A DNA stretch of 64,000 nucleotides from Escherichia coli (lineage in GTDB: Bacteria; Pseudomonadota; Gammaproteobacteria; Enterobacterales; Enterobacteriaceae), in NCBI RefSeq assembly GCF_003991155.1, contig NZ_CP031293.1; one strand, given 5' to 3'. Below the pieces are notes generated by a model. The model worked only from the letters and a program-made list of their open reading frames with translations. It was not told the DNA's origin and searched no databases. How positions within the stretch are numbered: the first letter of the stretch is position 1; every line of letters begins with the position of its first letter. A program made the translations under genes and the position numbers. This document shows positions 4,874-50,094 of the stretch, piece after piece.

Positions 4874-4897
4874 TGGCGGAAGATCACAGGAGTCGAA
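4874..4897. repeat. Distal att direct repeat: a 24-bp copy of the selC 3' end
   Basis: tggcggaagatcacaggagtcgaa at 4874-4897 is identical to 50000-50023, the 3' end of intact selC on the minus strand. Imperfect similarity continues for ~15 nt on the low-coordinate side (tcagaagagg at 4859-4868 and 49985-49994). Confidence 0.9.
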
Positions 4898-4949
4898 TAT
4901 GAGAGTTAATGTTTTGATTTTAAATGATTAATACGTGTTGGATAAATGA

Positions 4950-4970
4950 GTAACCCCCATAAGAACCCCC
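4950..4970 (+). repeat. Paired ACCCCC motifs (candidate arm-type recombinase sites), distal island end
   Basis: gtaaccccc and agaaccccc lie 12 bp apart and are followed by aaa. The matching pair gtaccccc/gtaccccc lies 12 bp apart at 49867-49886 in the same orientation. Confidence 0.4.
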
Positions 4971-5032
4971 AAATGACTTTGCGTAAGGGAATGAGGCTAA
5001 AATACACAATCGAATCAATTCTTAGAGCTTTA

Positions 5033-5878
5033 TTATGAAGGTAACACTCCCGGATAGTGTTTCGCAATAATCTCATTAAGTCTGTCAACCAGTTCTGGTT
5101 TCCTGAACGTGATGTGCGCGGAGCCCTTCTTAAAGTATCTGATGCTGAACATCTCATCTTCATAGTCCTCTTTACCCTGAACTGAGTGGATGTGATCATC
5201 CAGACGAATAGTGATGTTTTCCCGGTTGTCGGGGATCGGTTTGCCGCTGAACAGGTGTAGCATTCTTTCCAGATCGGCAAGTCGATCTGCCTGTTGCCCG
5301 GTGATAAGATGAAACCCCCACCGGTCCCACCTCACCAGGTTGTTGACGATAATTTTACTGCCAAATTTACAGGGCGAGTTGGTTTTGTAATCCCAGCCCA
5401 GTCCTCTGAAAACGTTGATCACCCCTCGCTCAAACACCTCATCCTTATTCTGGTGCAGTTGTTCAAATGTGCTCAGAATGTTCGCTTCATTGATTTTCGG
5501 AAAATTATCATATTCCAGTGACCGGTACCATGTATCACGGGCCTGTGCATCCATTAAGGAAAGCATCCCTGAACGTTGCATCAAGTTTCGCCAGATTTCA
5601 CGGTCAAGGTTCCGGGTGATGGCTTTCATTGCGGTTTCCGGTTTTTCCATCAGCCAGCAACCGCAGCGAAAATCCTGTTTCATCGCCCAGTCCAGGGCGG
5701 TTTTACCTCCAATACTTTCTGTCAGTACTGAGATTTCTGCCAGTTGCCGGATAAGTGTGTCGATTTGCAGCAGCGCACTCTTTCGTACAGCCAGAATGTG
5801 GCGGATACTGGTTGAGCAGATAACGTCCGTATGCCCGTTGACCAGTTCCGGGCGGGAGATTGTGATATCTGACATCAT
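5033..5878 (-). CDS. Conserved CP4-type island protein (DUF4942-like, methyltransferase-like) found downstream of CbtA-type toxin modules
   Basis: 281-aa ORF at the island terminus. I recognise the sequence family from cbtA-containing prophage remnants. The DUF number is from memory. Confidence 0.6.
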   Translation of the reverse strand: MMSDITISRPELVNGHTDVICSTSIRHILAVRKSALLQIDTLIRQLAEISVLTESIGGKTALDWAMKQDFRCGCWLMEKPETAMKAITRNLDREIWRNLMQRSGMLSLMDAQARDTWYRSLEYDNFPKINEANILSTFEQLHQNKDEVFERGVINVFRGLGWDYKTNSPCKFGSKIIVNNLVRWDRWGFHLITGQQADRLADLERMLHLFSGKPIPDNRENITIRLDDHIHSVQGKEDYEDEMFSIRYFKKGSAHITFRKPELVDRLNEIIAKHYPGVLPS

Positions 5879-5900
5879 CGTTTTTCCTTTTGGTTTATAA

Positions 5901-5930
5901 ACGAAAACGCCAGCCCTGTTCAGGCTGGCG
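5901..5930 (-). terminator. Rho-independent terminator
   Basis: On the minus strand, the stem cgccagcc/ggctggcg with a 7-nt loop is followed by TTTTCGTTT. It lies between the stop at 5960 and the next start at 5878. Confidence 0.7.
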
Positions 5931-5959
5931 TCAGTGGAATGAAGTCTGGTGAGTGAGAT

Positions 5960-6157
5960 TCACCGGTTCTGGTGCAGAAGCTGCAGTTGGCGCAGGGTAT
6001 GGATATCCTCCCTCGCCTGTTCAATACAGGACAACAGTGCTGCCGAATCCGTTTTATCCTCATTGTTGTCAAAGATAATTCCGGATTCGCAGTCGATATT
6101 GTCCTGCAGCCACGCAATCAGAATATCCAGTGCGGTTTCCGTGGTTAATGATTTCAT
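5960..6157 (-). CDS. Small conserved island protein (65 aa, DUF957-like)
   Basis: Start MKSLTTETALDILIAWLQDNIDCESGIIFDNNEDKTDSAALL... is preceded by an AGGAG Shine-Dalgarno. I trimmed the ORF-track start to this ATG. Confidence 0.6.
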   Translation of the reverse strand: MKSLTTETALDILIAWLQDNIDCESGIIFDNNEDKTDSAALLSCIEQAREDIHTLRQLQLLHQNR

Positions 6158-6168
6158 GTTGCTCCTGG

Positions 6169-6657
6169 TTACCAGTTGAAAGTGGGTAAACCCGGCAGGC
6201 ATTCAGCGCTGGCATCCAGATGAATGAGACTGACGCCATAACGTCGGGTAAGTGTGATAACCAGACGACGGAACGTTTTTGACAGCCCCAGGCGTTTAAG
6301 CCGCAGAACCGGATATGACCACGCATCGGTACGTAACAGATATCCGCTACCTGTGAAATGAATCCATTCTGATTCACCGAAGTCACTGGTCTGGTGTGAC
6401 AGCGAGTACAGCCAGGCGTTGTCCGTTTCCGTGATATGTGCGGTACTGCAGCGTATACCGGTCAGGGCAGCAAATGGTGGCATGCAGTCTGTTGAGGCCC
6501 GGTCAGATGCATCAACAACACGAAGGGAGTGGCCATTATCACAGACCACGTTAATCAGTTCAGCGAGATTAACACCATCGACGTCAACGACAATGCGTCC
6601 CATGTTCAGTGCCTGCACGTTAATGCTGTCGGCTTCCAGCGTCAGGGCCAGTTTCAT
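6169..6657 (-). CDS. Conserved 162-aa protein translationally coupled to the CbtA-type toxin gene (YeeW-like)
   Basis: Its ATG at 6655-6657 overlaps the toxin gene's TGA (6654-6656) in an ATGA arrangement. I recognise no catalytic motif. Confidence 0.6.
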
Positions 6658-7031
6658 TGTTTCGCCTCCGGATGTTTCCCCTGGGTAATGTTATTTACCG
6701 TTCTGTAGTTATCGCGGGTCATCAGGCCGGTTGCCCTGCGAGCCCGGAGAATATCAATACTGTTTATTAACTGAGAGCGGGTACAGGCGCTGAATCCCGG
6801 CTGGTCGGTACGTATCAGTGCGTATTTTTCAACGAGAAAGTTCACCGCATCACACAGTGAAATGCCAGCTTCAATATGCTGCTCAATCACACGTTCATCG
6901 GCGAACGGTGTGTCATTCAGTGTGAGGCCATAGTGCTGGTCCAGCAACCGGGACAGCAGTGTCTGCCAGATGGTGACGGGAGACGGGCAGCGAGATACCT
7001 CCCGTACATGTGTGTCGGATAATGTTTTCAT
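6654..7031 (-). CDS. CbtA/YeeV/YkfI/YpjF-family type IV toxin
   Basis: 125 aa containing ...[65 protein letters not shown]..., which is typical of CbtA-family toxins. Confidence 0.9.
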
Positions 7032-7077
7032 CTTAAGTTCTCTGTAACTGGTAGTGCTAAAGGTGAGAGCTTCGGGG

Positions 7078-7452
7078 TTATGAGGTGGTTGCGGGTGCTG
7101 GTGTCGGATAAACAGTCAGATAAACGTAACCACAGGAGCCGAGGGTGTCGGCTTCGCAGGTCAGCCCTTTTGCATACAGCGTGACGGTATGCTGATGTCG
7201 GGGATTCAGTTCACCGCTGGTGAGCATGAGTTCCAGTTGTTTCATCAGCAGCGGAAAGGCCTGGTCCAGATGGTATGCATCTGCGTCGCTGAAGCGGCCT
7301 CTGATACCCGCGCGGTCGGCAAGGTAATGCAGGTGGTTACCCTCCTGCACCAGACGGGCGCCAAAACAGGGCCTCACTGTGCAGGGAAGCCCCCACCAGG
7401 GGCGGTCGTGATTGTCGTCGGGATGAGTTATCCCGGAGAGTTTGTCTGACAC
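7078..7452 (-). CDS. CbeA/YeeU/YafW/YfjZ-family antitoxin
   Basis: 124 aa reading ...[71 protein letters not shown]... It lies immediately upstream of the toxin. Confidence 0.9.
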
Positions 7453-7501
7453 GATAAAATCCTCTCTGAAAAGTGGTTAAGAATGGTTTAACGATGACAG
7501 G

Positions 7502-7615
7502 TCAGCCGGCGCGCTGACCGGTTTCGGTGAAGATGTATGCATTGATGAGAATGGCCTCATCCACAGCGGCGTCTGAGGTCATCTGGTCGTACTCGTTTCC
7601 CGGGTGACGGAACAT
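7502..7615 (-). CDS. Possible 37-aa ORF coupled to the YeeT-like gene
   Basis: The ATG overlaps the upstream TGA (TGATG). The product is MFRHPGNEYDQMTSDAAVDEAILINAYIFTETGQRAG. It is below the ORF-track size cut-off, and I do not recognise a homologue. Confidence 0.3.
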   Translation of the reverse strand: MFRHPGNEYDQMTSDAAVDEAILINAYIFTETGQRAG

Positions 7616-7836
7616 CAGTTCAGGGTGACACTCATCAGCCGGACATACGGGCCAAAACTGTCCTTACGGCGTTCTGCAAACACAGCCAGCACACCGGGAA
7701 TATCCTGCACTTCACGACCGGTATACGCTTCAGTGCCACCGTGCCAGCGGTACTTACCTGTGCAGAACGGAAAAAGACGGGATGCAGGATGCTGTTGGTG
7801 AATACGCATGGCTTCACCACGGGTGATGATTCTCAT
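7615..7836 (-). CDS. YeeT/YkfH/YpjJ-family protein (DUF987)
   Basis: 73 aa reading MRIITRGEAMRIHQQHPASRLFPFCTGKYRWHGGTEAYTGREVQDIPGVLAVFAERRKDSFGPYVRLMSVTLN, nearly the K-12 YeeT sequence as I recall it. Confidence 0.85.
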   Translation of the reverse strand: MRIITRGEAMRIHQQHPASRLFPFCTGKYRWHGGTEAYTGREVQDIPGVLAVFAERRKDSFGPYVRLMSVTLN

Positions 7837-7898
7837 GATGTGATACCTCTGAAGACAGAAGATAAAAGTGAAAACAGGTGTGATGTGGTTGTGACGGG

Positions 7899-8375
7899 TT
7901 AAAGCAGACCATGTTCGGCAAAGGAGAATACCTGGCTGCCACCGACTATCAGATGGTCCGGCACCCGGATATCCACCAGGGCCAGCGCCTGAACCAGACG
8001 TTCCGTAATAAGCCGGTCTGCCTTACTGGGTGTGACTTCACCGGACGGATGATTGTGCGCCAGCACCACGGCAGCGGCATTGTGGTACAGGGCGCGTTTA
8101 ATCACCTCCCGGGGATGAACTTCCGTGCGGTTGATGGTGCCGGTGAAGAGGGTTTCACCGGCAATCAGCTGATTCTGGTTGTTCAGATACAGCACCCGGA
8201 ACTCTTCACGCTCCAGTCCCGCCATGTTCAGAATCAGCCATTCTCGTGCCGCACGGGTGGAGGTGAAGGCCACGCCGGGTTCATGAAGATGGCGGTCCAG
8301 GGTTTTCAGGGCCCGTTGAATGAGGCTGCGCTCACCGGGCGTCATTTCTCCGGGCAGAAAGGAAATCTGTTGCAT
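7899..8375 (-). CDS. RadC-like JAB-domain protein (YeeS/YkfG/YfjY family)
   Basis: 158 aa with the JAMM-like motif HNHPSG...S..D. Confidence 0.9.
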   Translation of the reverse strand: MQQISFLPGEMTPGERSLIQRALKTLDRHLHEPGVAFTSTRAAREWLILNMAGLEREEFRVLYLNNQNQLIAGETLFTGTINRTEVHPREVIKRALYHNAAAVVLAHNHPSGEVTPSKADRLITERLVQALALVDIRVPDHLIVGGSQVFSFAEHGLL

Positions 8376-8389
8376 TGTTCCGGCCCCTT

Positions 8390-8869
8390 TCAGTCAATGA
8401 TGCGCATAATGGCGCTGCATTCCGGATGCTGCAGGGCGTAATCCCGCAGCCGGTAATAATGGACCGTCATGGCATAACATTCCGTACGACAGGCATGATG
8501 GCTGTACGTCATCAGACAGGCGGCAATACCGGCAGCTTCCGGACTCATTTCAGCGCGGTTACCGTTCATGGCATTGAACAGTACCCATGTTTCGTCATCA
8601 TCGTCATCCGGTTCAGGTGCCATAAATGCGCCACCGTTGTTCAGGGTGTACAGATTCCAGATGCCCCCGCAGTAGTCTTCGCACAGACGGTCCATCCAGC
8701 CGAAGACACGGGGCTCCAGGGTCACCCACTGTGGAATGAGGCCAAAATGCTGCGGCCAGAAGCTGATACGTTGTTCATCAGGGACGGGAGTAGCAACCAG
8801 TTGGGGCTGGTTATTCCCTGGTGCTGTGGCTGAAGAAAGAGCAGTTGTGTTCTGAGAAACGATTTTCAT
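8390..8869 (-). CDS. Antirestriction protein (YfjX/YafX/KlcA-ArdB-like family)
   Basis: The start is trimmed to MKIVSQNTTALSS... An acidic stretch PEPDDDDDETW is present, and the position between the RadC and DUF932 genes is conserved. Confidence 0.8.
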   Translation of the reverse strand: MKIVSQNTTALSSATAPGNNQPQLVATPVPDEQRISFWPQHFGLIPQWVTLEPRVFGWMDRLCEDYCGGIWNLYTLNNGGAFMAPEPDDDDDETWVLFNAMNGNRAEMSPEAAGIAACLMTYSHHACRTECYAMTVHYYRLRDYALQHPECSAIMRIID

Positions 8870-9134
8870 GAGTGAAATCCTTACAATGTGTATAAATGAG
8901 AGGAAATAAAGGCCGGGGGCTGACAACATCACGTTCATCACTGACCGTGAGACCCGGCAATATCAGGGATGAATGATATTCGGCTGAAATTCCGGACAGC
9001 CGTACGCGTAACCGTTCCGGTCACAGACGGATGGCCAGAAGATGCCATTGCCTGTACTCAGTCTGCACAGACTGAGTTCTCCGGGGCGTCGGGTGATTCT
9101 GGTGCCTGAATCACGCCTTCAGGGACAGATTGCA

Positions 9135-9953
9135 TCAGCGCAGGCTCTCCAGTAGCGTTTCTGCCATCACCCACAATGCGCGATTGAGCTTAATGTCGGT
9201 GTCGATGCTGTGAATGGCACGGGTGTGGATACGTTTTCCTCTGGCACTGCGACCGGAAATTCCGCCTTTCAGCATATTCTCCTGGATGGTCTGATAAGTA
9301 CTCCACAGGTCCTTACCGTAATCCTCCCGGCGTCGTGGCGTCAGAATGTCGGTAGTGGTGACGGGCTGATGTTCATCACCATAACGGTAAGTCAGCGCCG
9401 CCTGTGCCAGCGCCTGGCGTGCCGGTGGCGGCAGGACCAGCGACTGCATGGCATCACGCTTTTCCTCAATCCGGTCAAACACGCCCACCACTTCGTAAGC
9501 ACCTTCTATGACCCTGTCCACCACGTTTCCCCGGTGTGGCACCCGGACTTCTCCCAGCGACTGACCGCAGACCAGGCCATTGGTACAAATGGCACGAAAA
9601 TATCCGGGTAACATCTGGTAGCTGGATGAACCGTCATGGGAGTTGAGCAGAATAATTTCAGGCACATGCTGACCGGTTATCTGTCCGGCCCGCCGCAGAC
9701 GCAGCATATGTTTGGTATATTCCCGGCGGCTCTGGTCGCGCACACGGGTCTGGCAGGCGAAGAACGGCTGAAAGCCTTCCCGCTGCAGATTTTCCAGGAC
9801 GGTGATGGTGGGAATGTACGCATACCGTTCACTGCGGGAGGTGTGCCGGTCTTCTCCAAAAATACTCGGGACGTGGTACATCAGTTCTTCGCGTGTCAGT
9901 GGGCGCTCCCGACGGATCTGATTTACATGACCAAAACGACTGGCTAATTGCAT
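9135..9953 (-). CDS. DUF932-family protein (YfjQ/YafZ-like)
   Basis: 272 aa starting MQLASRFGHVNQIRRERPLTREELMYHVPSIFGEDRHTSRSERYAYIPT..., characteristic of YafZ/YfjQ. Confidence 0.85.
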   Translation of the reverse strand: MQLASRFGHVNQIRRERPLTREELMYHVPSIFGEDRHTSRSERYAYIPTITVLENLQREGFQPFFACQTRVRDQSRREYTKHMLRLRRAGQITGQHVPEIILLNSHDGSSSYQMLPGYFRAICTNGLVCGQSLGEVRVPHRGNVVDRVIEGAYEVVGVFDRIEEKRDAMQSLVLPPPARQALAQAALTYRYGDEHQPVTTTDILTPRRREDYGKDLWSTYQTIQENMLKGGISGRSARGKRIHTRAIHSIDTDIKLNRALWVMAETLLESLR

Positions 9954-9987
9954 ACTTTGCTCCTTATGAATGAATTAGCGGTATAAA

Positions 9988-10021
9988 CGAAAAGGCCGCG
10001 TCTCCCGGAGAAGACGCGGCC
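9988..10021 (-). terminator. Rho-independent terminator
   Basis: On the minus strand, the stem ggccgcgtct/agacgcggcc is followed by TTTTCGTTTAT. It has the same ATAAACGAAAA context as the terminator at 5901-5930. Confidence 0.7.
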
Positions 10022-10042
10022 TGATGGATGAAATGAAGACGT

Positions 10043-10276
10043 TTATTGCCTGAGAATTCCCTCACTGGCGAGGTACGAATTTAGCTGTTTTCCGGCGTCA
10101 GACTCAAAATTCCAGCACCGCCAGCGTAGTTGCCCTTCGGCATTGCGGATAACCAGCAGGAAATGCGTTCCATGGTCATCTTCAATAAGCACATTGCGGT
10201 AAGCTGTTGTGGCAGCCATTGCCTGTTTGCGTGAGAAAGGGCCTTCGGGCAATAAAACAGGGTGACAGTCCGACAT
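10043..10276 (-). CDS. Small DUF905-like island protein (YkfF-like)
   Basis: 77-aa ORF in the conserved position of CP4-type remnants. The family assignment is from memory. Confidence 0.6.
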
Positions 10277-10281
10277 ACCGG

Positions 10282-10959
10282 CTATTTTCCGATAAATTCA
10301 ACGCTGGCACTGGTGGCATTACCGTCAGCACCAACCGTGACGGTCACTTTGTCGTACGCACGGTCTTCAGGATTGAATACTTCAAACTCAACCTTATTGC
10401 CTTTTACTTCGTAAGAGCCAAAATCAGCGGTTTCTGTTGTTTCCTCGTCATATTCCCGGGCGTATGCCTGCCGGGCAGCCTGCAGGACGGAGTCTTTATT
10501 AATAGTGGTCGTCTGTTTCGGGGAAAAACCGGCAAGTGATGTGACAAATTTCGGACAGACCTTCAGCATATCACCGCGGGTGAATTCCATTCGTACACCA
10601 AATGCCTGTAAAACGGACACATCACGCTCTGCTATGGAGTGAACGGCTTTTTTGACCATTTCCGGCGCCTGTCCGATTTCCACCTCAACAGCCCTGAATC
10701 CCGTCTGCTGATTACACATTTGTGATGTGGGGATCAGGTTACCGTTAATACTGATACGGCTGCCCAGGAGCGTCTGTACGCCATTCGGGCATCCCTGCAT
10801 CAGGCCGGTAATACCAATCGTGCCATTTTTCAGCATTACCAGCGCCTGACCATCTTCCGTCATGGTCTGACACCAGCCGTTTTTGACAGCCCAGTTGCCG
10901 GCGGAGGCGGAGAATGATGCCACAGTGAACAGCAGGGGAAAAAGAGCTCTGGTATTCAT
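10282..10959 (-). CDS. Exported protein of CP4-type islands (YfjS/YafY-like)
   Basis: The start is trimmed to [20 protein letters not shown]|GNW, a type I signal peptide. 225 aa. Confidence 0.6.
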
Positions 10960-11106
10960 GACTGACCTCTGAAATGAACGTACGGTGTTATTGATAATGA
11001 TGGAAGGTATGCAGTGACTGTTCAGGGAATGACGTAGCCGTATATTTAGTTTTCTGTTCAACATATTGTCTCCATACCTGTCGGGACGGCTTTGGCAGGC
11101 CGGCGA

Positions 11107-11787
11107 TCACAGGTTAAAGGTGTTGATAAGTTTATGGATGAAAGAGAAATGTGGCAGGGCGGAGATAAAACGCTCTTCAGCGACCAGACTGTGGATGTGG
11201 CCTCTCCGTTCAAACCGTTCTGATGTCAGGCTGACTGATTTGATATCTGCCAGAGGAAAGACCTGCAGTTTTCCCTTCTGTAACGCGATCAGATACCAGC
11301 TACCGCTGTAATAAATGAGCCGGCAGGGCTCCAGTGACGGATACCATCGCTCAGTCATCAGAGAGATGTGGATACACTGTCTTATTGCCAGGATGAGTTG
11401 CGAGAAACACTCGGGGAACGTTGCAGTGATATTCGGCGCCGGTAGCCAGATAAGGCAGGGAGAGGGCTCCTGGTTGTCGGTAAGACAGGTTATCAGTCGT
11501 CCGTTCCGGAGCGGAAGTATCCGTGCGATCCCGGTATTCTGTATAAAAGAAAGCATTTCAGGGATCGCACCTGGGCTGCTCTGTCGTCTGAGGCTGTACC
11601 TGCCATTTCTGTACTCTAAATCCAGGTGAACCAGACGCTGATGAAAATCGCGCTGTAAAGTACGTTCTGTAACGCCAAATTCATCTGACAGTGTTTTTAG
11701 TGACAGAGATTCTCCGGCCATCAGTCGGCTGATAATGAGTGATAAGCGAACCGCCAGGCGATCATGCCGGGAACGATTATCAGACAT
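11107..11787 (-). CDS. HTH + WYL-domain transcriptional regulator (YfjR-like)
   Basis: The N-terminal HTH reads SLKTLSDEFGVTERTLQRDF. The C-terminal WYL signature reads YYSGSWYLIAL. Confidence 0.8.
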   Translation of the reverse strand: MSDNRSRHDRLAVRLSLIISRLMAGESLSLKTLSDEFGVTERTLQRDFHQRLVHLDLEYRNGRYSLRRQSSPGAIPEMLSFIQNTGIARILPLRNGRLITCLTDNQEPSPCLIWLPAPNITATFPECFSQLILAIRQCIHISLMTERWYPSLEPCRLIYYSGSWYLIALQKGKLQVFPLADIKSVSLTSERFERRGHIHSLVAEERFISALPHFSFIHKLINTFNL

Positions 11788-11989
11788 AGATGTGCACTCC
11801 GTAAGAAAACATCTTTTATTTCATGATGTTATTATGCCTCATGGTGTTGAAAGGATGTGTCGTATCTGAATAATCAGGAATAAAATGCAGCAGAAAAAAT
11901 ATTCCTTTAATTATCTGATTTTTAATGATGATTTCATAAAAAGAAGAATACTCATTAATCCAGCGACACATCCTGTCGGCGTGAGTGTG

Positions 11990-12874
11990 TCAGAACAGAC
12001 GATCCCACAGTGTTTCCAGCAGGCGGATAATGCGGTCCCGGGCTTTACGCAGAAGCTGTAACATCCAGACCGGAAAAGTGAACCGGGCAACGGCGTCGTC
12101 AAAACTTTTCCCGATGGCGTCACCAAAAGTCTGTTGTGCGTGTTTCTGGGCCTGTTCAGAGCGGTTTTCCCCCCGGATATGTGAATAAACCGCACTGGTT
12201 GCCTGCGGTGGCAGGGCGTGGATCATCAGCGACACAAACGCCGGAAGATTCCAGCCGACAGGCGCAGCAACGGGGAGTACCGGAAATGATGACGGGAACA
12301 GGGTTGCCACCCTGGCTGTAACAGTTGCCAGTGAGAGTTCCTGGTGACGGGATGGGCATTTTTCTGTGGCATTCCATTCTTCAGCAGGAAACACGCGATC
12401 GGCATGGCTGAGAACAAACAGAAAACGCGAGGGATCTGCACCTTCATTCAGTAAAAACTGATGCATGGCAATATCGGCAGCATACGCACGTTCATCAGCC
12501 CGCAGGATCCAGATAATCAGATCCAGTTCCGGCAGTAACTGACGGTAAAGCTCCCGGTATTCCTGATCATGCTGCGGTGTCTCACCAATGCCGGGCAGAT
12601 CGACCAGCGTCATTCTGCGTTCACCAATCTGCAGGGTGAGGCGATGAGCCTGGCGGGTGCAGCCGTTCAGGGGATGCGTGGCGCAGATACGGGACTGAAA
12701 AATGGCATTACACAGACTGCTTTTGCCGGAGCCGGATTTACCCATAATGCCAATCACGGGCTCGTAATGAATAACACCGTGGAGATGTTCAAGGATTTTC
12801 TGGCGAATTTCTTCAGGAAGAAACGTCAGATATGATTTCACTTGCGCGGAGAGGGAAGAATTGCTGAATGGCAT
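11990..12874 (-). CDS. YeeP/YfjP/YkfA-family GTPase
   Basis: P-loop GKSGSGKSSLCNAIF and G3 motif LVDLPGIGE. 294 aa. Confidence 0.85.
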   Translation of the reverse strand: MPFSNSSLSAQVKSYLTFLPEEIRQKILEHLHGVIHYEPVIGIMGKSGSGKSSLCNAIFQSRICATHPLNGCTRQAHRLTLQIGERRMTLVDLPGIGETPQHDQEYRELYRQLLPELDLIIWILRADERAYAADIAMHQFLLNEGADPSRFLFVLSHADRVFPAEEWNATEKCPSRHQELSLATVTARVATLFPSSFPVLPVAAPVGWNLPAFVSLMIHALPPQATSAVYSHIRGENRSEQAQKHAQQTFGDAIGKSFDDAVARFTFPVWMLQLLRKARDRIIRLLETLWDRLF

Positions 12875-12974
12875 ACCGGTATCCTGTTGATTTCACTGAA
12901 CCGGATCACACTAATCCGGTTTATCATTCAGGTAATATGGGTGTGAAAATTTTTCCATTGACGGGAAGAAGAGT

Positions 12975-15434: not shown

Positions 15435-15734
15435 ATGACAAAAACAGTATCAACCAGTAAAAAACCCCGTAAACAGCATTCGCCTGAATTTCGCAGTGAA
15501 GCCCTGAAGCTTGCTGAACGCATCGGTGTTACTGCCGCAGCCCGTGAACTCAGCCTGTATGAATCACAGCTCTACAACTGGCGCAGTAAACAGCAAAATC
15601 AGCAGACGTCTTCTGAACGTGAACTGGAGATGTCTACCGAGATTGCACGTCTCAAACGCCAGCTGGCAGAACGGGATGAAGAGCTGGCTATCCTCCAAAA
15701 GGCCGCGACATACTTCGCGAAGCGCCTGAAATGA
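15435..15734 (+). CDS. insE: IS3 OrfA (transposase HTH component)
   Basis: Reads [52 protein letters not shown]... It overlaps orfB in the -1 frame, the usual frameshift arrangement. Confidence 0.9.
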
Positions 15735-34883: not shown

Positions 34884-34902
34884 ATCCTCACTTTACAACG
34901 GG

Positions 34903-35927: not shown

Positions 35928-35980
35928 TATTTTTGTAGAGCCGGAGGAAACAGACCAGACGGTTTAAATGAGCCGGTTAC

Positions 35981-38734: not shown

Positions 38735-38749
38735 TAACGAGGTGAGAGG

Positions 38750-40313: not shown

Positions 40314-40334
40314 AATCTTTTTCTGGAGGAAAAT

Positions 40335-41147: not shown

Positions 41148-41168
41148 CGACAGACAGGACATTTTACT

Positions 41169-42479: not shown

Positions 42480-42514
42480 TCTGCCTGTTGTAACCTTTCA
42501 AAAGGAAACTCAAT

Positions 42515-42934
42515 ATGACGACATTGACCCTGAAACAAGCATTGCTTGCAGTAGAGTATGCGCTTGATCTTGCAGTGCAACAATATGCTGGCCGTCCTTT
42601 AAGTGTGGCAGTATGCGATGTTAATGGTGAATTGCTGAGCTTTGCCCGCATGGATAGAGCCAAACTGTTAACTATTGAATTAACGCAGCGTAAAGCACGA
42701 ACCAGTAGTCGTCTGGGCTGTACGACAGCAGCATTCTTACAGCGTCTACAAAAAGAGCAACTTGATATCAGCTATTTTGGAGATCCCCGGTTTACCGCAT
42801 TACCAGGAGGGATCCCTATTCTGGTTAAAGGAAAATGCATTGGTGCTGTTGCTGTGGGGGGATTATCCGCACGAGAAGATCATGATGCGGCACAGGCTGT
42901 CGCAGATAAACTGCTTGAGGAGATGACCAAATGA
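42515..42934 (+). CDS. GlcG/HbpS-like (DUF336) protein
   Basis: 139 aa reading ...LPGGIPILVKGKCIGAVAVGGLSAREDHDAAQA, the typical DUF336 C-terminal motif. Confidence 0.75.
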   Translation: MTTLTLKQALLAVEYALDLAVQQYAGRPLSVAVCDVNGELLSFARMDRAKLLTIELTQRKARTSSRLGCTTAAFLQRLQKEQLDISYFGDPRFTALPGGIPILVKGKCIGAVAVGGLSAREDHDAAQAVADKLLEEMTK

Positions 42935-43581
42935 AAAAAATAGCCATGCTTCACACCAGTTCAGCCACGCTTGCGGTGATGCAACAACTGATAGGCGATA
43001 TCATGCCTGAGGCTGAAGTGATGCATCTGGTTGAGGAGTCTATGATTAAGCAGGTGATGAAAGCGGGCGGTGTTACGCCAGATATCGCCGCACGGATCGC
43101 TGATTACATACGGATCGCTGAAAAAGCCGACTGCGATATTTTCATTACCGCTTGTTCATCAATTGGTACTGCTGTCGAACAGTGTCAATTTATGACTTCA
43201 GTACAACTGGCACGGATTGACTGTGCGATGGTGGATGAAGCAATCAACAAAGGGGAACACATTGCTGTGCTGGCAACGGTGGCCACAACGCTGAAACCGA
43301 CGCTTGATTTTGTCCGGCGAAAAGTTCAGGAAAGTGGAAAACAGCGGATTATTACACCTGTTTTAATGGAAGAAGCCTTCCATGCGTTATTGAATGGTGA
43401 TATGGGAACGCATGACCGCATTGTGAGTGAAGGATTACAAAAGGCCTTTGGGCAGGCAGATGTTATTATGTTAGCGCAGGCATCGATGGCACGGGTGCTG
43501 CAAAATATGCCTGAGCCTCCGGTTCCGGTATTAACATCGCCAGAAAGCGGTATTCGCTGGTTGAAAACATTCGCGAGTTAA
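42931..43581 (+). CDS. Asp/Glu/hydantoin-racemase-fold protein
   Basis: 216 aa with a Rossmann-like start KKIAMLHTSSAT and a candidate catalytic Cys in ITACSSIG. The second canonical Cys position reads LAQASM, so there is no second Cys. ATGA overlap with the upstream gene. Confidence 0.6.
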   Translation: MKKIAMLHTSSATLAVMQQLIGDIMPEAEVMHLVEESMIKQVMKAGGVTPDIAARIADYIRIAEKADCDIFITACSSIGTAVEQCQFMTSVQLARIDCAMVDEAINKGEHIAVLATVATTLKPTLDFVRRKVQESGKQRIITPVLMEEAFHALLNGDMGTHDRIVSEGLQKAFGQADVIMLAQASMARVLQNMPEPPVPVLTSPESGIRWLKTFAS

Positions 43582-44174: not shown

Positions 44175-44800
44175 TCAGGCTTCGTGCATCTGGTCACAAA
44201 CCCGTATATCAATCATCATTGATGAGAAATTATCTTTATGAGGGCGTTTTTTTGGTTTCAGTTTTGCACGGAACCAGGAGATTTTTGGGAGTTGTTTTAT
44301 GTATGTTGTAAATAAAATTTTAATATTGACATCTACTGTACGTGCATAGAGTACGCCGGTGACCAACGTCAGCATTCCACTGTTCCAGTAACTAATTAAC
44401 GTAAGTGAAGTTATCGAGGAAGCAATACTGGATGGAGAAGTCGTCCTTGAGGTATTCACTTTCCTTTCGTTCTGCCCATTAGTGGACAGCTAACTAGTGG
44501 CAGGACATCGGAGTACAGCACCTTCCCGTTGTTATTTATCAGCACGGCAGCTTTCTGGTTATTGACGAGCACAGTTTTCACGCCGCCGCCAAAGTTGTGG
44601 AAGACTCGCACCAGTGACTCATGGGTATGTTCAGCATCCTGTATGGGGCAGCAAAGAGATAGAAGCGACGTGAGAACCCCCTGCGTATTAGTCGCGAAGT
44701 TAATGCAGCATCGTTGTCTGACCAGTACCCCAGTCATGCTGGAGCTGGTAATCCGGCTGAGTTTTGAAGCGAACCGTTTTCTTCGATTTCCGTCTGGGAA
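44175..44800 (-). pseudogene. Degraded IS21-family istA
   Basis: ...THESLVRVFHNFGGGVKTVLVNNQKAAV...GRTKGK, followed by a stop and more similarity, resembles the family pattern H..AF..FGGVP..VL.DN.KTAV...RA.TKGKVE. Confidence 0.6.
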
Positions 44801-44929
44801 GTAATCAGACTCAGCACGGACAAAAATTGCAGCGCCCGGATGGCACGGGTAATGGTCAGATTACCGGATGCGGATTAGGTGCCGCGTAGTGAAGCGCGCC
44901 GGATTCAGAGTCGCTAGTATGGTCATACA

Positions 44930-45140
44930 GCGAAGGAAAGCCGCCAATTTTTGTGCCGGACGTGGAATATACAGCGAATGCTGATGTAAAAGGCGCTCGT
45001 AATATTTTAGCTGCGGGACATACTGTGCTTGCCAGGGAAGGGATGGTGCAGTCAGACCACCCGTTGAAGCGAAATGAACCTGAACCATACGACAACCTGA
45101 AAGTAGCAGGAATCCACGCCCTGAAGGACGTGGAGGAAGT
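44930..45140 (+). pseudogene. C-terminal remnant of an IS200/IS605-family tnpB
   Basis: ...YTANADVKGARNILAAGHTVLAREGMVQSDHPLKRNEPEP resembles the TnpB tail NADVNAA.NILAAGH.VLA.GE. Confidence 0.55.
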
Positions 45141-45219
45141 CAAATCGATGGTAGGTTGTAGGTTTATGGCAACATCTGCTTCATTAGATACATGTCGATA
45201 TACAGAACATATATCACAT

Positions 45220-45903
45220 TTATGAATTTTCTTTTATCCTGCTATTTTGGGGTTTATTGTGAAAGTAACTTTCAAGAACAGGCAGATAGTACCAGGATTC
45301 AGGATGTTTTTTCAGGAATTCATTTAAAAATGATTGCATTGTTAAATATAAATCTTTGTTATTTCCTTTATGTATAAAATCATAAATCCACACGTAATTA
45401 CTGTAATTAGAATCAAAGTATGATGCAATAAAATACGCATTAGCACCTGCGCGTCTTACAATATATTCCCAACCACCGTGCAACCATGCTTTCTTATTCA
45501 GTAGACAAGCTTCTCTTACAGAACCATAGTTTTCGCTACTATACACTGAGGGTATATCTGGTAATATAATCAAATTAGCTCCGTTTTTTACAAGCTTAAT
45601 CATGGCCTTTATTTCTGTAATGCCATTTTTTTCGAAAACAGTAATCTGATGCCCAAGTCCAGAAAGTGAATGTATTAATTCCAACTCATTGAGACCATTT
45701 ACAGAACTTCTATAAAAAATAAAATGTGAGTTAGATTTATATGAAAGTAGAATTTTATGAATGGCTGTCCAGTATTCACCAGAATGTAAAACTACAAACA
45801 CAGAATTATTAAGTGTTTTATGTAATGCATCCAAAAAACAGTCTTCATATATAAATTTTGTACGGTGTGCATACTCATGAAGGGTATTCATAGACACAAT
45901 CAT
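45220..45903 (-). CDS. Hypothetical 227-aa protein, possibly a short LpxL/LpxM-type (lipid A late acyltransferase family) homologue
   Basis: AT-rich ORF. VFVVLHSGEYW, ILPDIPS and KKHPESWYYL loosely parallel the family blocks H.G.WE, .DQ. and PEQYLW. The HX4(D/E) dyad is not exactly preserved and ~90 N-terminal residues are missing. Confidence 0.35.
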   Translation of the reverse strand: MIVSMNTLHEYAHRTKFIYEDCFLDALHKTLNNSVFVVLHSGEYWTAIHKILLSYKSNSHFIFYRSSVNGLNELELIHSLSGLGHQITVFEKNGITEIKAMIKLVKNGANLIILPDIPSVYSSENYGSVREACLLNKKAWLHGGWEYIVRRAGANAYFIASYFDSNYSNYVWIYDFIHKGNNKDLYLTMQSFLNEFLKKHPESWYYLPVLESYFHNKPQNSRIKENS

Positions 45904-45983
45904 TTTAGCCCTATTACTGACAATAATGATAATTGATATTCTGAGCGTATCGAAAATAAGTCCGAATTATCAGAAGGTTTATT

Positions 45984-46756
45984 ATGAAAATACTCATTGC
46001 AGGGGCAACCGGAAGTATTGGTCTTCATGTCGTGAATACCGCTATTGAAATGGGTCATCAGCCCGTGGCGCTGGTCAGAAATAAACGCAAAGTAAAATCT
46101 CTTCCTCGTGGAACAGATGTTTTTTACGGCGATGTTTCAATGCCGGAAACACTCACCGAATTGCCGAAAGATATTGATGCCATCATCTTCACTCTCGGTT
46201 CTGATGGCCAGGGGCGTATTGGTGCCAGAGCGATCGATTACGGAGGAGTGCGTAATATTTTGCGAATATTCAGGGATACACCTGTTCGTATCAGCTAATG
46301 ACCACGATTGGCGTGACTGAGCGGCTCAGCACTTGGAATCAACGCACTGAGGTTCATGACAGGAAAAGACGTGCCGAGCGTCTGGTCAGGGCCAGCGGTC
46401 ATCCCTATATTATCGTCCGGCCCGGCTGGTTTGATTACAACAATGATGATGAACACAGGATCGTTATGCTTCAGGGGGATCGTCGCCATGCAGGAACACC
46501 GGAAGATGGTGTGATATCCCGGGAGCAAATCGCCCAGGTTCTGGTCAGTGCCCTGACCAACGACGAGGCAAAAAATAAAACGTTCGAGCTGGTGGCTGAA
46601 CGAGGTGAAGCACCACAGGATCTTACCCCACTGTTTGCAGAACTGCAGACTGATGATGCACAAAAAAATGATGGGGTTCTGGACATAGACAATATGCAGC
46701 TGAGAGAAGAACCGGAGTGCATTATTAACGAGCTGAACCTGTATTCAAAAAATTAA
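45984..46756 (+). pseudogene. NAD(P)-binding NmrA/SDR-like oxidoreductase, split by a 1-nt frameshift
   Basis: MKILIAGATGSIGLH (a GxxGxxG motif) ...PVRIS stops at 46296-46298. The sequence continues as MTTIGVTER... in the +2 frame. Restoring one T in agc(t)taatg gives a continuous ~256-aa protein. Confidence 0.75.
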
Positions 46757-46897
46757 ACAATCTACAACCCTGACAATTTTGTCATATAGCGGTCAGCCTC
46801 ATGACAGTTTAAGTCTGTATATTTACATACACAAACGGGGATAGTTCCCTTGATACGAATCCAGTTTTAAACATAGATTTTAAAAGAGGTATTAAAT

Positions 46898-47149
46898 ATG
46901 AAAGCATTACTTATTACTACATTGGTCATGGGGTTTATTTCAGTGAATGCCGCATCTGCAGCTCAGGAAATTAACCATGCAGATGGGAAAGAAAAGATAG
47001 GTGTAGTCTCAGCCAGCAATGCCTATACGCTTGATGAATTATCGAATACGCTTTCTCGTAAGGCTGATGAACAAGGAGCAACATCGTTCAAAATTCTGTC
47101 AACCACGGGGAATAACCGGCTGCACGGGGTTGCTGAAATCTATAAGTAA
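46898..47149 (+). CDS. YhcN/BhsA/McbA-family (DUF1471) small periplasmic stress protein
   Basis: 83 aa with a signal peptide MKALLITTLVMGFISVNAASA and the C-terminal motif GATSFKILSTTGNNRLHGVAEIYK. Confidence 0.85.
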   Translation: MKALLITTLVMGFISVNAASAAQEINHADGKEKIGVVSASNAYTLDELSNTLSRKADEQGATSFKILSTTGNNRLHGVAEIYK

Positions 47150-47205
47150 ATCATTAGTATCCTGAGCAGGATGTGTCTTAACCCTCTTATAGCGAGCGTC
47201 GATTT

Positions 47206-47541
47206 ATGTTTAGAACAGAAGACATCATCGATGAGATAACCCAATGGATTGATTCAAATTTACATAAGCCGCTGAAGATAGAGGATGTTGCTGCGCGGGC
47301 AGGATACTCGAGGTGGCATCTTCAGCGGATTTTTGTGCAGGTGAGAGAAATTAGCCTTGGGAAGTACATAAGAGATACGAAACTTAGACTTGCAGCAAAA
47401 GATCTTATCGCGACTAATGAGCCAGTGATGGTTATCGCCTTTAAATATGGATTCGATTCACAACAAACTTTTACTCGGATTTTCTTTAAAAAATATAAAT
47501 TGCCACCATTGAAATATAGGGTAATGACTCCAACTTATTGA
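47206..47541 (+). CDS. MarA/SoxS/RamA-like small AraC-family regulator, with its 3' end altered by IS1
   Basis: ...[30 protein letters not shown]...[15 protein letters not shown]1 enters after codon ~105. Without IS1 the frame would continue ...LKYRNAERRKKLHQPMS*. Confidence 0.8.
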
Positions 47542-48038
47542 TAGTGTTTTATGTTCAGATAATGCCCGATGACTTTGTCATGCAGCTCCACCGATTTTGA
47601 AAACGACAGCGACTTCCGTCCCAGCCGTGCCAGGTGCTGCCTCAGATTCAGGTTATGCCGCTCAATTCGCTGCGTATATCGCTTGCTGATTACGTGCAGC
47701 TTTCCCTTCAGGCGGGATTCATACAGCGGCCAGCCATCCGTCATCCATATCACCACGTCAAAGGGTGACAGCAGGCTCATAAGACGCCCCAGCGTCGCCA
47801 TAGTGCGTTCACCGAATACGTGCGCAACAACCGTCTTCCGGAGCCTGTCATACGCGTAAAACAGCCAGCGCTGGCGCGATTTAGCCCCGACGTATCCCCA
47901 CTGTTCGTCCATTTCCGCGCAGACGATGACGTCACTGCCCGGCTGTATGCGCGAGGTTACCGACTGCGGCCTGAGTTTTTTAAATGGCGGAAAATCGTGT
48001 TGAGGCCAACGCCCATAATGCGGGCGGTTGCCCGGCAT
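47535..48038 (-). CDS. insB: IS1 InsB reading frame (expressed as the InsAB' frameshift fusion)
   Basis: ...[40 protein letters not shown]... matches IS1 InsB. Confidence 0.9.
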
Positions 48039-48232
48039 CCAACGCCATTCATGGCCATATCAATGATTTTCTGGTGCGTACCGGGTTGAGAAGCGGTGTA
48101 AGTGAACTGCAGTTGCCATGTTTTACGGCAATGAGAGCAGAGATAGCGCTGATGTCCGGCGGTGCTTTTGCCGTTACGCACCACTCCGTCAGTAGCTGAA
48201 CAGGAGGGACAGCTGATAGAAACAGAAGCCAC
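47957..48232 (-). CDS. insA: IS1 InsA
   Basis: 91 aa starting [43 protein letters not shown]... Confidence 0.95.
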
Positions 48233-48522
48233 TGGAGCACCTCAAAAACACCATCATACACTAAATCAGTAAGTTGGCAGCATCACCGAAATATAGAAAC
48301 GCGGAAAGGAGAAAAAAACTTCACCAGCCCATGTCTTAAGTTCTGTCAGTATGGCTACAGCCTGTTTGCTGAGTGGCACAAGGTGTGGTGTTCGAATCTT
48401 GGTTCCCCAATGAGAGTTCAGGCGGTGTGGGCAAATAAAAAAGAAAACATAAATAAAACCATCCGACCGTTGGTGGGGCTGGATGGTTATTCATTATTTC
48501 TATGTCACTGAACTTTCATTCA

Positions 48523-49704
48523 TCAGATCTGCTCAGAAAGTGAATCAATGTAGTCAGCATACCACTGCATCATTTCACGGCGACCATCCAGATACTGGGC
48601 ATGATTATAGGTACCTCTGATAGCGTTTTTATCCATATGAGCTAACTGCATTTCAATCCAGGCAGAATTAAAGCCCTGTTCGTGCAGAATTGTACTCATG
48701 GTGTGTCTGAAACCGTGCCCTGTGAGTCTTCCCTTATATCCTAGTAATTCAATGACTTGGTTTATGCTTTCCTTACTAATTGGTTTGCGAGGATCGTTCC
48801 TACCGATAAAGACCAGAGGATGATGTTTTGAGATTGGTTCAAGTTGCTTAAATAGCGCAATGACCTGCTCAGAGAGCGGCACAATATGAGGTCGCTTCAT
48901 CTTCATTACTTCTGCCGGGATCTCCCATAATTTTGTCTCAAAATCGATATCCTCCCAGCGTGCGAAACGCAATTCTTGAGTTCGTACACCAGTTAGCATA
49001 ATGATTTGAGTGGCTGTCTTAGTGATAATACTTCCGGTATAACCCGCCAGATCATTGAGGAAGTGGGGAAGTTCATTAGCAGTAAGAAAGGGAAAATGTA
49101 CTTTTTTCGGTGTAGCTAAAGCACTGGCAAGATCGGGAGCAGGGTTGTAGTTAGCCCGACCAGTAACAATTGCATAGCGGAACACCTCTCCACAGCGCTG
49201 GCGGACCTTACGCATTTTCTCCAGAGCTCCACGTTTTTCCATTTTACGCAATGCTTCCAGTAACTCCATTGGTTTGATTTCAGCAATAGGGCGTTTGCCA
49301 ATATAGGGAAAAATATCTTTTTCAAAGGTATCAATGATTTCATCACGATAGCGTAATGACCACCGATCGGCTTTTGACTGATGCCATTCTCGAGCAACGG
49401 CCTCAAATGTGTTTTTCAAACTCATTTGCAGCGCGATTTTTTCTTCTTTTTTTGTCTCACCCGGATCGCATCCTGCAGCGAGGATTTTCCTAGCTTCACT
49501 GCGTTTTTCGCGAGCGTCGGCTAGAGTTACATCGGGGTATACGCCAATAGAAAGCATCTTTTCTTTGCCAGCAAAGCGGTACTTCATACGCCAATATTTA
49601 GAACCATTAGTGTTAATGAGTAGATACATACCGCCACCATCAGACAGCTTATAGGGCTTTTCTTTTGGTTTTGCGGTTTTCACTTTAATATCAGTTAACG
49701 CCAT
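48523..49704 (-). CDS. P4-type tyrosine integrase
   Basis: 393 aa. The N-terminus MALTDIKVKTAKPKEKPYKLSDGGGMYLLI is DUF4102-like. The catalytic region has HGFRHTMST and GTYNHAQY. It lies adjacent to the selC 3' end. Confidence 0.9.
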   Translation of the reverse strand: MALTDIKVKTAKPKEKPYKLSDGGGMYLLINTNGSKYWRMKYRFAGKEKMLSIGVYPDVTLADAREKRSEARKILAAGCDPGETKKEEKIALQMSLKNTFEAVAREWHQSKADRWSLRYRDEIIDTFEKDIFPYIGKRPIAEIKPMELLEALRKMEKRGALEKMRKVRQRCGEVFRYAIVTGRANYNPAPDLASALATPKKVHFPFLTANELPHFLNDLAGYTGSIITKTATQIIMLTGVRTQELRFARWEDIDFETKLWEIPAEVMKMKRPHIVPLSEQVIALFKQLEPISKHHPLVFIGRNDPRKPISKESINQVIELLGYKGRLTGHGFRHTMSTILHEQGFNSAWIEMQLAHMDKNAIRGTYNHAQYLDGRREMMQWYADYIDSLSEQI

Positions 49705-49866
49705 GACATCCTCCGGATTTTGATGAATCCATGTTCCTGGACTTCTGCCAGTAACTGACCTGATATCCCCAATGCACCCCCATGTATAACAAAGATGTTG
49801 TTAAAAGCCGTTGTTATATATCACATTTTTTCCATTATGGGGGTGCTGATATTTTAAGAGAAAATA

Positions 49867-49886
49867 GTACCCCCTAAAGTACCCCC
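49867..49886 (+). repeat. Paired GTACCCCC motifs (candidate arm-type sites), integrase-proximal island end
   Basis: Two gtaccccc copies lie 12 bp apart. Another acccc c motif lies at 49776-49781 and an inverted ggggg at ~49840. Compare the pair at 4950-4970. Confidence 0.4.
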
Positions 49887-49999
49887 AAAAGCAACTTGAT
49901 ATGGGGTGATACCGGTTGACCTCGGGATACAAAGAAATCCTGATATACAATAGGTTATATGGAGATTGTTGATATAAGGAGAGTTCAGAAGAGGTTAAT

Positions 50000-50094
50000 T
50001 GGCGGAAGATCACAGGAGTCGAACCTGCCCGGGACCGCTGGCGGCCCCAACTGGATTTGAAGTCCAGCCGCCTCACCGGAGACGACGATCTTCC
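50000..50094 (-). tRNA. selC: tRNA-Sec (selenocysteine, UCA anticodon)
   Basis: The minus strand reads GGAAGATCGTCGTCTCCGGTGAGGCGGCTGGACTTCAAATCCAGTTGGGGCCGCCAGCGGTCCCGGGCAGGTTCGACTCCTGTGATCTTCCGCCA. This is the 95-nt E. coli selC sequence, with its long extra arm and 8-bp acceptor stem. Confidence 0.97.

Follow-up and report, generated by a model that had tools for sequence, protein, structure and literature searches.

The tRNA-Sec gene selC is the integration site of a family of genomic islands that are bounded by a 24-bp direct repeat derived from selC (PMC6174562). Here we describe a member of this family, about 45 kb long, in a stretch of Escherichia coli DNA of 64 kb (contig NZ_CP031293.1; hereafter the window, to which all positions refer). 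LEE (the locus of enterocyte effacement), the Tia pathogenicity island (Tia-PAI), SHI-2 and PAI I-536 (PMC7545054) share with it the site, the integrase family and the selC-derived direct repeats. They differ in carrying type III secretion system (T3SS), invasin, aerobactin or hemolysin determinants, none of which is annotated in the present island.

Other described islands resemble it more in content. According to its published description, AGI-3 of the avian extraintestinal pathogenic E. coli (ExPEC) strain BEN2908 is likewise a selC island, of about 50 kb, with a core repeat (TTCGACTCCTGTGATC) that is contained in the 24-bp repeat found here and with the same TTTGGGGGT...GGGGGT sub-terminal repeats (PMC6174562). 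Compared by that description, its cargo is the fos fructo-oligosaccharide operon (PMC3325963), where the present island has psu, tnaCAB and otnK modules. AGI-3 is also reported to contribute to virulence, and nothing in the present island suggests that. GIselC17584/1 of the Shiga-toxigenic E. coli (STEC) O91:H21, called a fitness-gene 'survival kit' by its authors, is a mosaic selC island of 48.5-50.6 kb that shares the 24-bp repeat, the CP4-type integrase, the sub-terminal repeats and the yee/CP4-44 toxin-antitoxin module (PMC6174562). It carries hemolysin/hemagglutinin-type and other putative virulence genes, whereas none is annotated here.

CP4-57 and CP4-44 of K-12 and GI-pheV (PMC11537424) have in common with the present island a P4-type integrase by a tRNA gene, an AlpA-family regulator, a YfjJ/YagK gene and a yee module with CbtA/YeeU, but use a target tRNA other than selC. 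The modular architecture of the GI-pheV type, in which the integrase is the sole constant gene (PMC11537424), matches the layout found here. Finally, two islands at the same site, in the genomes NMBU_W05E18 and Eco889, share the backbone (4862-26770) at 94-99% nucleotide identity, including the psu module and the AlpA-family gene, and have metabolic cargo too; their integrase-proximal cargo is wholly different.

The element type, the site, the repeats, the backbone and the presence of metabolic cargo at selC are all known, and the island is already annotated in RefSeq. An earlier note on this DNA, made from the sequence alone, stressed a payload that is metabolic rather than LEE-type; because metabolic cargo is common in the selC family (PMC6174562, PMC3325963), this property by itself is not unusual. 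What is new is the combination of cargo, chiefly an island-borne second tnaCAB operon, together with an otnK cluster without the canonical dehydrogenase.

A precise integrase-type insertion at selC

The insertion is precise and of the integrase type. The window contains a single tRNA gene, selC (ARAGORN; Rfam RF01852, 83.8 bits; Table 1). The 24-mer TGGCGGAAGATCACAGGAGTCGAA, which is the reverse complement of the selC 3' end including CCA, occurs in exactly two copies in a scan of the window (4874-4897 and 50000-50023), and no third copy was found in the window at up to three mismatches (0 expected by chance). The 24-bp direct repeat reported in the earlier note is therefore real, and the exact repeat is in fact 25 nucleotides (nt) long (4873-4897 and 49999-50023), with similarity reaching 39 nt at 90%.

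The setC-yicT-selC region of K-12 MG1655 is colinear with the left flank of the window, through the repeat and on into selC. The alignment with this empty locus passes through the junction without a break, which makes the 45,126 bp that separate the two repeats a precise insertion. Taken together, ARAGORN, the repeat scan and the K-12 alignment bear out the proposal of one 45-kb island in selC with exact attachment (att) boundaries.

We found no sign of further integration events inside these boundaries. A blastn-short search with selC plus 60 nt gave no other selC-derived stretch of at least 13 nt inside the island, and an Rfam scan of the whole window returned only selC and a group II intron fragment, with no other tRNA fragment hinting at a second integration module. 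The test for additional selC-derived repeats, which the earlier note had named as a way to break the island into several elements, is thus negative and the single unit stands; a test of the same type found junctions in six other genomes, described below.

The integrase gene adjoins selC in the same orientation, and the earlier observation that it lies beside an intact tRNA gene holds at a distance of 295 bp. Its open reading frame (ORF) has full Arm-DNA-bind_3, Phage_int_M and Phage_integrase domains and retains the R...HxxR...H...Y catalytic residues. Among complete E. coli RefSeq genomes (n = 5,426, the set used for all genome counts below), 1,238 cover at least 80% of an integrase-region query, and the best match is 90-95% identical in most records. 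Matches located at selC include those of enterotoxigenic E. coli (ETEC) H10407 (92.6% nucleotide identity) and of O104:H4 and O157 (about 90%).

In addition to the identical att copies, the island has kept a second pair of terminal signals. TTTGGGGGTACTTTAGGGGGT and TTTGGGGGTTCTTATGGGGGT have been described as the second repeat pair of AGI-3 and GIselC17584/1 (PMC6174562), and both recur exactly in the window, one near each island end. The copy at 4953-4973 is a candidate arm-type site of the integrase.

A shared backbone with mosaic catabolic cargo

Gene calls are those made by PGAP for AR Bank #0349, in which the island is identical, complemented by Pfam and NCBIfam scans. The island comprises around 60 PGAP features, with remnants of the insertion sequences (IS) IS3, IS66, IS110 and IS1. 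Read from the tRNA side, the order is integrase, IS1, decayed genes, otnK cluster, IS debris, tnaCAB, psu module and yee module. This is the usual plan of the family, in which variable cargo separates the integrase at the tRNA gene from a conserved distal backbone, here with the AlpA-family gene, the YagK/YfjJ Rep-like genes and the yee module. Between one part of the island and another the GC content ranges from 33% to 55%, in keeping with a mosaic.

The cargo is mosaic and of a non-virulence kind. As the earlier note had described, the PGAP annotation shows catabolic modules (psu, tna, otn-like) alongside IS scars and genes of the CP4 type. It contains neither a T3SS nor an adhesin, toxin operon or siderophore gene, so the reported lack of the first three is upheld. 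For the island ORFs without a name, the Pfam and NCBIfam scans returned metabolic or backbone families only.

The two halves of the island have very different distributions. The whole island is 100% identical in 21 of the 5,426 genomes. Positions 4000-28000 of the window, essentially the backbone and the psu module, are covered to at least 80% in 338 genomes, compared with only 21 for positions 28000-51000. Pairwise blast delimits the backbone to 4862-15370, 16628-17763 and 25564-27285, and the 20-kb cargo region from about 27.8 kb to the integrase (27.8-48.5 kb) is specific to the 21 genomes. In other strains the same backbone is followed by different cargo: dsdCXA and a cutCD choline microcompartment in NMBU_W05E18, and a grp glycyl-radical propanediol microcompartment in Eco889.

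With a single integrase and no internal att site, the data point to one element whose cargo was built by IS capture and by recombination between backbones. We consider it very probable that this is a single island of the selC family with metabolic cargo assembled by IS elements. The following sequence of events would account for its structure. A P4-type tyrosine integrase would have integrated the circular form of the element by recombination at the 3' end of selC, which would regenerate an intact tRNA gene and, on the distal side, leave the tRNA end duplicated over 24/25 nt. IS66, IS110 and other IS elements, along with backbone recombination, may then have captured chromosomal operons of related enterobacteria, namely a psuKGT-yeiI nucleoside module, a second tnaCAB and an otnK-type acid-sugar cluster. 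Such cargo, if its operons are expressed, would add or duplicate catabolic capacity rather than virulence.

The psu module is inserted into the backbone and by gene content holds a complete set for pseudouridine catabolism, with the PsuK kinase, the PsuG glycosidase and a nucleoside transporter. The island proteins PsuK, PsuG and the transporter share 79%, 90% and 90% amino acid identity with K-12 PsuK, PsuG and PsuT, and the kinase with a helix-turn-helix (HTH) domain shares 71% with YeiI. A K-12-type psuKGT locus is present in 5,391 of the 5,426 genomes. The module is 99% identical in Eco889 and NMBU_W05E18 and is missing from the selC islands of EC0585 and MMC-J-0091. A literature search for a selC island carrying pseudouridine genes gave nothing relevant by title or abstract.

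The tna segment is a second operon next to that of the host, which retains the canonical mnmE-tnaCAB-mdtL arrangement. Island tnaC, tnaA and tnaB are all intact, and the upstream palindrome TGTGATTCGATTCACA, which we take to be a CRP-binding site, is conserved. Compared with the host copy, tnaA is 98.2% identical at the nucleotide level with 1 amino acid changed, and tnaB is 96.2% identical with 10 amino acids changed. The genes are far better conserved than the tnaC-tnaA spacer, in which 13 bp are deleted. The island leader peptide TnaC (MNILHICVTSKWFNIDNKIVEHHP) differs from host TnaC by D21E and R23H and retains W12, D16 and P24, which are important TnaC residues.

Because of this divergence from the host copy, strongest in the leader spacer, the island tna operon is an imported copy and not a fresh duplication. 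Island-type tna at 99% identity or more was found only in the 21 genomes; elsewhere the segment matches canonical tna at about 94.5-95% (5,424 genomes with a match). An exact-protein look-up of island TnaB for the donor context gave island contexts only. Inverted IS66-family fragments (27823-27981 and 33778-33948), 94% complementary to each other, bracket the segment. Our literature search brought up no description of an E. coli island that carries a second tna operon.

A variant of the island occurs in GCA_964048855.1. It has two AlpA/YagK modules in tandem and a complete IS66, and a sulfatase gene and IS1 take the place of tnaC, with no leader ORF called there. This variant shows ongoing rearrangement of the island.

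The third module is an eight-gene cluster that encodes OtnK, an OtnC-type class II aldolase/decarboxylase, a DeoR regulator (YgbI-like), an OtnI-like isomerase, BKACE, a BASS-family transporter, GlcG/HbpS and an Asp/Glu-racemase-family protein. The OtnK kinase (510 bits, cut-off 350) and the OtnC decarboxylase (289, cut-off 250) score above their NCBIfam equivalog cut-offs. The OtnI-like isomerase falls short of its own (282 bits, cut-off 325) and scores nearly equally as hydroxypyruvate isomerase, and the DeoR regulator is also below the equivalog cut-off. Identity to the K-12-type proteins YgbK, YgbL, YgbM and YgbI is 38-52% at the amino acid level. No tetronate dehydrogenase (LtnD/DenD) was found among the eight genes, which have counterparts of YgbI, K, L and M only and no YgbJ match; in place of the dehydrogenase the cluster has BKACE, the BASS-family transporter, GlcG and the racemase-family protein.

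Within E. coli the otnK cluster is confined to 21 of the 5,426 genomes (megablast), whereas 4,577 have K-12-type ygbI-N. In a search of GTDB species representatives, the entire 6.9 kb was found at 91% nucleotide identity in 'E. coli' SCPM-O-B-8794, an atypical Escherichia genome. There the cluster (9863-16729 of its locus) is chromosomal, between glnHPQ (glnH) and rhtA, and only core genes and no tRNA gene were identified beside it. Judged by sequence and context, this chromosomal locus is likely to be the kind of source from which the island cluster came. More distant versions, of about 73% nucleotide identity, occur in Citrobacter amalonaticus and Klebsiella spallanzanii.

The cargo thus consists of ordinary operons in xenologous copies, and it duplicates pseudouridine salvage, tryptophan-to-indole conversion and tetronate-type acid-sugar use. 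Since these are core catabolic functions, the practical question is one of gene dosage or altered regulation, for example of indole, and not of a new trait. One reading goes further: the island, here in sequence type 457 (ST457), would supply a second functional tna operon, perhaps differently regulated on account of D21E, R23H and the diverged Rho-dependent spacer, plus an uncharacterised OtnK/OtnC/OtnI-like route fed by BKACE, the racemase-family enzyme and GlcG, with uptake by the BASS-family transporter. We regard this as unlikely as a whole. If it were true and both systems were expressed, clones of one sequence type with and without the island would differ in indole output and signalling and in the gut carbon sources they can use, providing a natural isogenic system in ST457, an emerging multidrug-resistant lineage. 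The value of the locus lies in its correct annotation and in this natural presence/absence system; it opens no long-standing question.

Turnover of the selC site and competing explanations

We constructed a synthetic empty site by joining 2 kb of each flank at the repeat. The earlier note had proposed looking for the empty selC-setC junction, and it is readily found: 13 genomes match the construct at 4000/4000, published ST457 strains with the same flanks among them, nine more are nearly perfect, and 2,475 cover at least 80%. The 14-kb right flank of the window, covered to at least 80% in only 1,601 of the 5,426 genomes, carries 0-1 single-nucleotide polymorphism (SNP) in the 21 genomes that bear the island, in 13 that are empty and in 4 that have selC displaced by an insertion of another size.

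Two of these last four were opened, and each holds a selC island other than the present one. The island of EC0585 is 28.8 kb long and includes GH43, xylA and Dnd-type restriction genes; that of MMC-J-0091 is a 47-kb Tia/LeoABC island with an IS1-flanked blaOXA-244. Their integrase regions are 92.8% and 94.3% identical, respectively, to the present one at the nucleotide level and their backbone alleles differ too, which identifies both islands as independent acquisitions. Sequence types are published for several of the strains: MRY15-117 and MRY15-131, two of the 21 island carriers, are ST457 (PMC5430464), as are CREC-544 (PMC5884925) and, after reclassification, LWY24 (PMC13593837), both with an empty selC in our comparison.

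Genomes with identical flanks, ST457 among them, therefore differ in the state of selC, so that gain or loss was recent and precise. The selC site turns over in a shared chromosomal background that includes ST457, with exact junctions. One site in one background can be empty or hold a metabolic island, a xylan/xylose island or a Tia/LeoABC island with blaOXA-244, which makes it a clean example of tRNA-linked islands as exchangeable cargo platforms.

It is possible, if a little short of probable, that the island is still excisable at a measurable rate. The integrase would then excise it with the help of the AlpA-family protein as activator or directionality factor. Judging from its family, the sole AlpA-type gene is a candidate excision regulator or recombination directionality factor (RDF). 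The earlier note had called the integrase and AlpA genes intact, and both ORFs are. What does not fit as well is the position of the AlpA gene. It is on the strand opposite to the integrase gene and 22 kb away from it, whereas in CP4-57 alpA is close to intA and has the same direction. The arrangement with alpA next to the integrase gene is thus not found in the island. Its place near the integrase is taken by an AraC-type HTH gene (47206-47541), the 3' end of which is clipped by IS1, and two small ORFs in this region (44175-44375 and 44456-44737), checked as hidden AlpA or Xis genes, have no Pfam match.

Besides the distant AlpA gene, several other results weigh against a mobile island. Identity among the 21 copies is about 100% and their chromosomal background is one and the same, which a single gain with vertical inheritance would fit equally well. 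The exact 41-nt attP junction has 0 matches in metagenome contigs and 0 in viral contigs, and a 600-nt synthetic attP query detected no junction of the present island in the complete E. coli genomes. Several island genes are pseudogenised or IS-disrupted in the PGAP annotation. Moreover, no relaxase, coupling protein or type IV secretion system gene is annotated (PGAP; not every small ORF was searched with profiles), and because of this, transfer must rely on a helper or on generalised mechanisms. Any transfer of the island would accordingly be helper-dependent.

These results raise the possibility of a fixed, immobile remnant, which would have entered one ST457 sub-lineage once and descended vertically since, with the empty sites being ancestral; we take it seriously while leaning against it. 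It would explain the near-identity of the 21 copies, the lack of an attP junction in contigs and complete genomes, the remote AlpA gene and the many IS elements and pseudogenes on the island. The SNP pattern of the right flank is compatible with it as well. A T>C change at 59870 unites three empty genomes, the two island-bearing genomes that were fetched have private SNPs only, and no homoplasy demanding repeated gain or loss was seen in the 14 kb, where SNPs are too few to tell gain from loss. On the other hand, the island combines a full-length integrase with its catalytic residues, identical att copies, sub-terminal repeats retained at both ends and an intact AlpA-family ORF. Besides, at least two further selC islands, distinct in their integrase alleles, have entered the same background, so both the site and the family were recently active.

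The precise, integrase-type insertion of one element also has to be weighed against other origins. Two or more elements could have integrated independently at selC to form a tandem, the boundaries between them disappearing later, as might be suggested by the two genes of the YagK/YfjJ type whose upstream segments resemble each other (16849-16916 and 25371-25433), by the psu module that is present in some backbones and not in others, and by the tandem AlpA modules of the GCA_964048855.1 variant. Tandem integration does occur at this site. The 600-nt attP query detected attP-like junctions of other islands, 84-88% identical, in six genomes; in one of them, 14EC001, the junction (12001-12562 of its locus) lies between LEE (espF end) and a small yee-module island by selC, so that this genome has a tandem array, as would fit serial site-specific integration. 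This internal att junction, with similar ones in the five other genomes, serves at the same time as a positive control for the negative internal-att result in the window. Given that the present island has one integrase only and no internal selC repeat (at up to three mismatches, or of 13 nt or more), that its module junctions fall at IS fragments instead of att sites, and that its backbone order matches simpler single islands, we judge such a composite improbable. We give slightly less credit still to the import of a large chromosomal fragment of another E. coli by homologous recombination, Hfr-like or transduced, without insertion by the integrase. No transfer genes are annotated on the island, and other E. 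coli islands that are not self-transmissible are documented to move in this way. However, occupied and empty genomes have identical flanks (100% over 2 kb on each side, 0-1 SNP over 14 kb on the right) in which no imported tract can be seen, and the junctions coincide exactly with the repeat derived from the tRNA. A cryptic CP4-type prophage, for which the P4-type integrase, the AlpA-family gene and the yee/CP4-44-like genes might speak, has next to no credibility in our view, because the Pfam matches are to metabolic, IS-related or island-backbone families and the attP scan of viral contigs was empty.

Three element classes were set aside on gene content. Among the roughly 60 PGAP features there are no capsid, terminase, tail, lysis or phage replication genes, which led us to reject a prophage. 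The PGAP annotation contains no virulence determinants as would be found in a pathogenicity island. As for an integrative conjugative element, no relaxase, coupling or mating-pair genes are annotated, and only the Rep-like YagK/YfjJ genes come near this class.

Feature coordinates and neighbouring loci

The coordinates of the island features are collected in Table 1.

Table 1. Features of the selC island, from the setC side to the tRNA gene (positions in the 64-kb window)
Feature	Position	Strand	Evidence or remark
Distal att repeat	4874-4897 (25 nt exact from 4873)		Copy of selC 3' end; K-12 empty-site alignment
Sub-terminal repeat TTTGGGGGTTCTTATGGGGGT	4953-4973	-	Conserved selC-island end
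yee/CP4-44-like backbone module	5033-12874	-	PGAP, Pfam
Conserved backbone protein, 407 amino acids	12975-14198	+	Within 33% GC stretch
IS3 insertion, transposase with programmed frameshift	15371-16628	+	Alignment gap versus Eco889
YagK/YfjJ ('inovirus Gp2') Rep-like backbone gene	16912-17643	+	PF11726, PF23343
psu module, inserted into backbone	17764-25563	+	PGAP, Pfam, NCBIfam
Hexapeptide acyltransferase	18164-18616	+	
psuK	19152-20087	+	NCBIfam equivalog, 649 bits versus cut-off 540
psuG	20080-21015	+	Indigoidine_A family
psuT/nupC-type transporter	21099-22349	+	
Divergent yeiI-like HTH-PfkB kinase	22368-23462	-	
Second, short YagK/YfjJ-like gene in psu module	24763-25329	+	
Short YagK/YfjJ-like gene, pseudogene, AlpA-family gene, hypothetical gene (182 amino acids)	24763-27253		
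Sole AlpA-family gene, 77 amino acids, intact	26220-26453	+	PF05930, 40.8 bits versus cut-off 21
IS66-family transposase fragment, start of lineage-specific cargo	27823-27981	+	
Debris beside tnaB: melA and bglF N-terminal fragments, group II intron fragment	27971-29135	-	
Group II intron domain fragment, between bglF fragment and tnaB	29049-29135	+	RF00029, 50.1 bits
Second tnaCAB with predicted CRP site	29309-32525	-	3.2 kb, palindrome to ~90 bp past tnaB
tnaB	29399-30646	-	
tnaA	30738-32153	-	
tnaC	32360-32434	-	
IS110 fragment, truncated ISCro1 (IS66 family: tnpC', tnpB, tnpA), small transposase ORF	33084-36160	-	
Eight-gene otnK cluster	36837-43581	+	PGAP, Pfam, NCBIfam
Integrase-proximal miscellany	44175-47541		PGAP, Pfam
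IS1, 9-bp target duplication GAAATATAG	47521-48288	-	Window-specific
P4-type tyrosine integrase, 393 amino acids, intact	48523-49704	-	295 bp from tRNA 3' end
Sub-terminal repeat TTTGGGGGTACTTTAGGGGGT	49869-49889	-	Partner of 4953-4973
selC, intact; 3' 24 nt (50000-50023) = proximal att repeat	50000-50094	-	

The yee module encodes, in order, DUF4942, DUF957, DUF5983, the CbtA toxin, the YeeU antitoxin, DUF987, RadC, an antirestriction protein, DUF932, DUF905, a hypothetical protein, a WYL/HTH protein and a YeeP-like GTPase, and is 85-99% identical to other selC islands at the nucleotide level. The neighbouring 407-amino-acid protein has no Pfam or PADLOC match and is found under the same accession in the selC islands of NMBU_W05E18 and Eco889. 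With regard to a possible defence system among the backbone proteins, PADLOC gave only a weak LeoBC-like match, to the YeeP-type GTPase.

Two of the IS insertions are restricted in their occurrence. The IS3 element is missing in the four other selC islands compared, and the IS1 near the integrase is present in none of the 21 island-bearing complete genomes.

The miscellany on the integrase side consists of small hypothetical genes, IncFII RepA and TnpB fragments, an acyltransferase-like gene, a frameshifted short-chain dehydrogenase/reductase gene, a DUF1471/BhsA-like gene and the AraC-type HTH gene. The IncFII RepA and TnpB/InsQ gene fragments are located at 44782-45084, and their presence indicates a passage of part of the cargo region through a plasmid.

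In the MMC-J-0091 locus, the flanks of which are identical to those of the window, the carbapenemase gene blaOXA-244 lies between two IS1B copies (33631-36870 of that locus).

Further accessory loci are found outside the island. A RhuM-family pseudogene (yicT in K-12; 4635-4796, minus strand) lies between setC and the distal repeat. Since it is also present at the empty site of K-12, it is older than the island and no part of it, and it is probably the scar of an older selC element. At the left end of the window (1-392, minus strand), PGAP annotates the 3' part of a SycD/LcrH-family type III secretion chaperone gene adjoining yicS, so that a T3SS-related locus flanks the selC region while the island itself is without one. 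Finally, the right flank contains a 7-kb accessory cluster between yicI and yicH (54392-61335, plus strand), which encodes a BglG-type antiterminator, fructose-type phosphotransferase system components IIA, IIB and IIC, two class II aldolases, a ROK protein and a lyxose/mannose isomerase.

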